Positions 1 to 1,200 of a DNA stretch of 1,200 bases are shown here, piece after piece. Source of the stretch: a phage; the sequence record MN525562.1; one strand, written 5' to 3'. The notes under the pieces were generated by a model. That model was not told the DNA's origin. It saw nothing but the letters and a program-made list of their open reading frames with translations, and did not search any database. A program made the position numbers and the translations under genes. The first letter of the stretch is position 1. Every line of letters starts with the position of its first letter.

Positions 1-1200
1 ATGCTTAATTATAATGCTCCTATTGATGGTCAGAAATCTTCTATTGATGGTGCTGGTTCTGATCAGATGAATACTTATTATTGGCTTAAAAAAGCTATTA
101 TTCAGTCTCGTAAAGATCAGTATTTTATGCCTCTTGCTAATACTATTAATATGCCTAAAAATTATGGTAAAACTGTTAAAGTTTATGAGTATGTTCCTCT
201 TCTTGATGATAAAAATATTAATGATCAGGGTATTGATGCTAATGGTGCTACTATTGTTAATGGTAATCTTTATGGTTCTTCTCGTGATGTTGGTAATATT
301 ACTTCTAAACTTCCTCTTCTTACTGAGAATGGTGGTCGTGTTAATCGTGTTGGTTTTACTCGTCTTTCTCGTGAGGGTTCTATTCATAAATTTGGTTTTT
401 TTTATGAGTTTACTCAGGAGTCTCTTGATTTTGATTCTGATGATCAGCTTAAAGAGCATCTTTCTCGTGAGCTTATGAATGGTGCTGTTCAGCTTACTGA
501 GGCTGTTCTTCAGAAAGATCTTCTTGCTGCTGCTGGTACTGTTCTTTATGCTGGTGCTGCTACTTCTGATGCTACTATTACTGGTGAGGGTGCTACTCCT
601 TCTGTTGTTTCTTATAAAAATCTTATGCGTCTTGATCAGATTCTTACTGAGAATCGTACTCCTACTCAGACTACTATTATTACTGGTTCTAAACTTACTG
701 ATACTAAAGTTCTTGGTGGTACTCGTGTTATGTATGTTGGTTCTGAGCTTGTTCCTGAGCTTAAAGCTATGAAAGATCTTTTTGGTAATAAAGCTTTTAT
801 TGAGGTTCAGCATTATGCTGATGCTGGTACTCTTATGAATGGTGAGATTGGTTGCATTGATAAATTTCGTATTATTCAGGTTCCTGAGATGCTTCATTGG
901 GCTGGTGCTGGTGCTCAGGTTTCTACTAATCCTGGTTATCGTTCTTCTATGGTTTCTGGTGAGGAGCATTATGATGTTTTTCCTATGCTTGTTGTTGGTG
1001 ATGATTCTTTTTCTACTATTGGTTTTCAGACTGATGGTAAATCTGTTAAATTTTCTATTATGACTAAAATGCCTGGTCGTGAGACTGCTGATCGTAATGA
1101 TCCTTATGGTGAGACTGGTTTTTCTTCTATTAAATGGTATTATGGTATTCTTGTTAAACGTCCTGAGCGTCTTGCTCTTATTAAAACTGTTGCTCCTCTT
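1..1200 (+). CDS. Putative phage major capsid protein (HK97-fold, N4 gp56-like size class suspected); 3'-partial, no stop codon in window; sequence appears synthetically back-translated
   Basis: Seen directly: ATG at 1-3 followed by 399 further sense codons in frame +1 with no stop, in a sequence of roughly mid-30s % GC by eye, where an open frame of this length is very unlikely by chance. Translation: [400 protein letters not shown]. It is globular-looking, has a single Cys, and is rich in Gly/Thr/Ser/Ala/Asp/Asn. Product call is from recollection only: the C-terminal '[10 protein letters not shown]' resembles the 'RPE/RPT + hydrophobic' motif near the C-termini of T7 gp10 (LRPEAAG), P22 coat (TRPEAIG) and HK97 gp5 (YRPTAIIKG). 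Confidence that this is the coding frame is high; confidence in the capsid assignment is about 0.5-0.6. The opposite strand and frames +2/+3 show no credible coding potential. Confidence 0.75.

Follow-up and report, generated by a model that had tools for sequence, protein, structure and literature searches.

Which reading frame encodes a protein, and how the DNA came by its composition, are the questions raised by a stretch of 1,200 nucleotides from the phage sequence record MN525562.1, which was analysed over its full length and is referred to as the window. An ORF listing of the window contains only the intervals 134-478, 479-772 and 839-1063, whose starts are all 2 mod 3 and thus fall in frame +2. 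Frame +1 is missing from this listing, yet it is open across all 1,200 bases, with no stop among its 400 codons, as the original prediction had stated. The base composition of the window (T.416, A.225, G.205, C.154) leads to an expected stop fraction of about 5.9% in a random frame, and simple arithmetic from the same composition gives a chance of about 2e-11 for 400 open codons in such a frame. The translation of frame +1 is that of a compositionally normal protein, with an amino-acid entropy of 4.12 bits vs 2.84 bits for frame +2, which bears out the protein-like character ascribed to it earlier. Its absence from the ORF track is due to the lack of a stop codon in the window, because the lister omits any ORF extending past either end; the suspicion that a stop codon is required by the ORF finder was therefore justified. 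Both composition and homology support frame +1 as the coding frame, and the resulting feature is as follows.

1-1200, plus strand: complete coding sequence from Met1 to Leu400, without a stop codon, for the major coat protein gp56 of G7C, in which a single codon stands for each amino acid (tblastn identity of 100%, 20 codons, PHROG 1357, PF25209).

As revealed by a tblastn search of phage records, the frame +1 protein is identical in 400 of 400 residues (100%) to the gp56 major coat protein of Escherichia phage vB_EcoP_G7C, the match being located at 54294-55493 on the minus strand of HQ259105.1. The corresponding gene (AEL79667.1; HQ259105.1 54291-55493, minus strand) is annotated as gp56, similar to N4 gp56, and resides in a structural gene block of G7C between gp57 (upstream) and gp55 (downstream). 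In the same search, the query coverage reaches 80% or more in 477 phage records, which all stem from N4-like phages, and 56 records show a protein identity of at least 95%. The assignment to the major capsid proteins of N4-like phages (Schitoviridae) is indicated by the identity to G7C gp56 as well as by the family profiles, since PHROG 1357 (phrog_1357, "major head protein") matches residues 1-399 with E=6.6e-151 and Pfam PF25209 (Phage_capsid_4) exceeds its cut-off of 27 bits with a score of 37. Among solved structures, the "major capsid protein" chain 9d7z and the "B2 Capsid" chain 9d82 are matched with E values of 9e-247 and 4e-148, respectively. The study on the phages Moo19 and B2 describes the major capsid proteins of the N4-like family as possessing an HK97-like fold and forming capsids of T=9 geometry; in it, the genus Gamaleyavirus has G7C as its type (PMC11654681). 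From these data and the near-identical solved chains (9d7z), the window protein may be expected to adopt an HK97-like fold and to assemble into a T=9 capsid. As judged from its amino acid sequence, it is an ordinary and already deposited capsid subunit of an N4-like phage (Schitoviridae).

While the protein is ordinary, its encoding is not. Exactly 20 distinct codons are used in the 400 positions of frame +1, one for each amino acid, as listed here in one-letter code.

A GCT, C TGC, D GAT, E GAG, F TTT
G GGT, H CAT, I ATT, K AAA, L CTT
M ATG, N AAT, P CCT, Q CAG, R CGT
S TCT, T ACT, V GTT, W TGG, Y TAT

The several synonymous codons per degenerate amino acid that would be expected in a natural gene are absent from the window, and the pattern observed is precisely that of a single-codon reverse translation. 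The log10 probability of obtaining a single codon per amino acid amounts to -67 with the codon frequencies of the natural G7C gene and to -110 with those of the entire G7C genome. The original prediction was right in regarding frame +1 as real and the listed ORFs as artefacts, but it took the bias toward T-ending codons for a natural property, whereas the DNA follows a strict encoding with one codon per amino acid; it was also incomplete, in that the usage of only 20 codons and the stop-free frame -1 were overlooked.

A codon-by-codon alignment of the window with the natural G7C gp56 gene shows 84.3% identical DNA, with 188 nucleotide differences and no amino-acid difference. Most of the nucleotide differences (180 of 188) reside at third codon positions, and the 182 codons out of 400 that differ are all synonymous; the natural gene employs 50 codons, the window 20. 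The natural gene is itself fairly biased, using GGT for 33 of 38 Gly, CGT for 14 of 16 Arg and CTG for 25 of 34 Leu residues, and because of this pre-existing bias a DNA identity of 84% is retained on back-translation. The limits of the window coincide with the ends of the database protein, extending from the initiator ATG (1-3) to the last sense codon, that of Leu400 (1198-1200), and the natural TAA stop would fall just past the window at 1201-1203. The window contains neither a stop codon nor a ribosome-binding site or flanking sequence, and such an exact match of its edges to the protein ends is not expected when a stretch is excised from a real genome.

The window DNA also stands apart from public sequences. 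The closest DNA among 50,697 phage records is 85.0% identical, even where the encoded proteins are 99-100% identical, so the DNA divergence is out of proportion to that of the protein (188 vs 0 differences from the G7C gene). The exact protein is recorded on one contig only, which is the G7C genome (2 samples) with its natural DNA. No match to the window was obtained among plasmid records, and viral, genome and metagenome collections contain no exact copy of the 50 nucleotides at 243-292. The DNA was thus not recovered by these searches, which did not extend to the patent and synthetic-construct divisions, although a natural gene would be expected to occur in public genomes, metagenomes or plasmids. 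Taken together, the 20 codons, the identical protein, the divergent DNA, its absence from public DNA and the exact edges lead us to conclude with very high confidence that the window represents an artificial reverse translation of G7C gp56, designed in silico and possibly synthesised as well, with one fixed codon per amino acid and a codon table coinciding with the top codons of phiX174. The act of back-translation itself is what we infer from these features: each amino acid of the 400-residue G7C gp56 would have been swapped for one fixed codon, and this table mechanically generates the T-rich third positions, the pseudo-ORFs in frame +2 and the open frame -1.

Among the other explanations, the one that survives best is a physically synthesised, codon-compressed gene of the "one amino acid-one codon" type, made for expressing the G7C coat protein and deposited as a construct. 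Genes are known to be designed with a single codon for each amino acid, and the window is indeed a clean full-length coding sequence starting from ATG. Against this, it carries no stop codon, tag, vector or cloning site, no matching plasmid record was found, and its codons follow phiX174 rather than the preferences of highly expressed E. coli genes, as seen from Leu, for which the window uses CTT in place of the CTG favoured by both the natural gene and the G7C genome. We consider this explanation unlikely, and it is a special case of artificial design, not a genuine competitor to it. Slightly less probable still is the more specific proposal that a 20-codon capsid gene was physically built for testing a minimal codon set or a phiX174-style usage in a phage structural gene. 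A synthesised gene and an in silico design cannot be separated by the sequence alone.

A natural capsid gene from an unsequenced G7C-like phage, driven to T-ending codons by an extreme translational or mutational bias, would at first sight be compatible with the existing preferences of the natural G7C gene, which has T-ending codons at 173 of 400 positions and shares its commonest codon with the window for 11 amino acids, and with the abundance of close relatives among the phage records noted above. It would have to account, however, for zero synonymous variation in 400 codons (probability of about 1e-67 to 1e-110), for some 180 synonymous changes relative to G7C without any amino-acid change, when even relatives with 99-100% identical proteins reach at most 85% in their DNA, for the use of CTT at every Leu codon where the natural gene has CTG in 25 of 34, and for window edges falling exactly on the protein ends. 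This explanation was rejected on the grounds of probability, of DNA vs protein divergence and of absence from public DNA; we regard it as exceedingly improbable, and a natural origin of the window DNA is effectively excluded.

Assuming that the window arose by artificial reverse translation, one may seek the source of its codon table among known genomes, and five were compared (phiX174, M13, G4, T7 and G7C). The window codons are top or tied-top in phiX174 for 18 of the 18 degenerate amino acids, 17 of them outright and Cys by a tie of TGT and TGC (13:13), from which the window uses TGC. The corresponding values are 15 of 18 for M13, 12 of 18 each for G4 and the G7C genome, and 11 of 18 for T7. 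Tables from M13, G4 or T7 were discarded for their poorer fit, as was that of the preferred codons of the G7C genome, which agrees for only 12 of the 18. The natural gene's own usage was likewise dismissed as the source, since the window codon is not the commonest one for 9 amino acids, including Leu. The codon set thus agrees with the most frequent codons of one reference genome, phiX174, if perhaps not of this genome exclusively. A derivation from phiX174, for which EMBOSS supplies a codon table, appears somewhat more likely than not, in the sense of a match and not a proof; the same 20 codons could also come from a different T-rich genome or from a table made by hand.

The consequences of such a table for the remaining frames are apparent from the following features.

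134-478, plus strand: artefact ORF in frame +2, 114 amino acids, rich in Leu, Val, Ile, Phe and Met, ending with TGA at ATG-AAT (Met-Asn).
479-772, plus strand: artefact ORF in frame +2, 97 amino acids, ending with TGA at ATG-AAA (Met-Lys).
839-1063, plus strand: artefact ORF in frame +2, 74 amino acids, ending with TGA at ATG-ACT (Met-Thr).
1-1200, minus strand: antisense frame -1, a stop-free artefact rich in Ile, Ser, Thr, Asn, Lys and Arg, with no stops in 400 codons and an entropy of 3.18 bits.

T occupies the third position in 322 of the 400 codons of frame +1 (about 80%), which places T at the middle base of the frame +2 codons, and frame +2 consequently reads as Leu, Val, Ile, Phe and Met (160, 54, 40, 37 and 30 residues, respectively, of about 399 codons). 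The earlier proposal that T-ending codons read out of register produce a frame rich in Leu, Val, Phe and Ile is confirmed by these counts. Because no codon of the table ends with TA and only ATG ends with TG, a stop in frame +2 can arise only as TGA at the junction of ATG with a codon whose first base is A. There are only five such junctions in the window (three Met-Asn, one Met-Lys and one Met-Thr), corresponding to the five frame +2 stops, all TGA, at 68-70, 476-478, 770-772, 836-838 and 1061-1063; their scarcity gives rise to long pseudo-ORFs and sets the ends of the three listed ones. Frame -1 is necessarily open, since the table lacks TTA, CTA and TCA and reverse-complementing the codons of the window never yields a stop. 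The codon boundaries of this frame coincide with those of the coding frame, and the ORF track omits it as well.

In the natural G7C gene the same frames are closed. Frame +2 contains 20 stops in total, of which 4 fall into the span 134-478 (at 320, 350, 449 and 473), 6 into 479-772 and 1 into 839-1063 (at 992), while frame -1 contains 2, and these ORFs are accordingly nonexistent in the real phage. Searches with the products of frame +2 and of frame -1 gave nothing in PHROG at E<=0.01 or in Pfam at E<=1, in contrast to the frame +1 protein, so that the view of the three listed ORFs as off-frame artefacts holds up against homology searches as well as against the natural gene; neither PHROG or Pfam homologues nor open frames in the natural G7C gene, as would be expected of membrane proteins, were observed for the frame +2 ORFs. 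That they, or frame -1, might represent real small hydrophobic or overlapping proteins inside the capsid gene is suggested by their lengths (up to 400 amino acids in frame -1) and a hydrophobicity like that of membrane peptides, but this idea was rejected and is the most improbable of all, given the missing family matches, the stops in the natural gene for the identical capsid protein, the low entropies and the fact that the codon table fully predicts the existence and the limits of these ORFs.

Other types of features were rejected as well, none of them exceeding threshold or background. No Rfam family reached its threshold in the window, no inverted repeats of at least 15 nt were found in it, and its promoter-like and terminator-like sites remain at the level of shuffled sequences, which leaves no structured RNA, repeat, promoter or terminator to be recorded. 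Families of direct repeats are weak (60-94% identity) and mostly spaced by multiples of 3; their presence and the absence of inverted repeats result from the T-rich third positions and the vocabulary of 20 codons.

Biologically, the window offers nothing new, because its protein is the already deposited major coat protein of G7C, and its significance lies mainly in quality control. ORF lists that drop edge-running frames can hide the only real frame and display off-frame artefacts in its place. In DNA with a strong bias to T at third positions, or with a single codon per amino acid, long hydrophobic pseudo-ORFs appear in frame +2 and the antisense frame stays open throughout, and an annotation could mistake these for membrane or overlapping genes. 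The occurrence of exactly 20 codons may serve as a quick flag for back-translated or designed DNA in a scan.

A comparison with known systems places the window protein and the window DNA in different categories. As far as the protein is concerned, the major capsid proteins of N4-like phages (Schitoviridae) represented by the solved chains 9d7z, 9e99, 9d82 and 9bgn match the window protein over the full length, and no difference sets it apart from them. The natural G7C gp56 gene encodes the same 400 residues, but it possesses a stop codon and is flanked by gp57 and gp55, all of which the window lacks. The DNA itself most closely resembles a most-frequent-codon reverse translation with a phiX174-like table, with which it shares 20 codons that are each top or tied-top in phiX174, the only looser correspondence being the Cys codon TGC, which is merely tied there.
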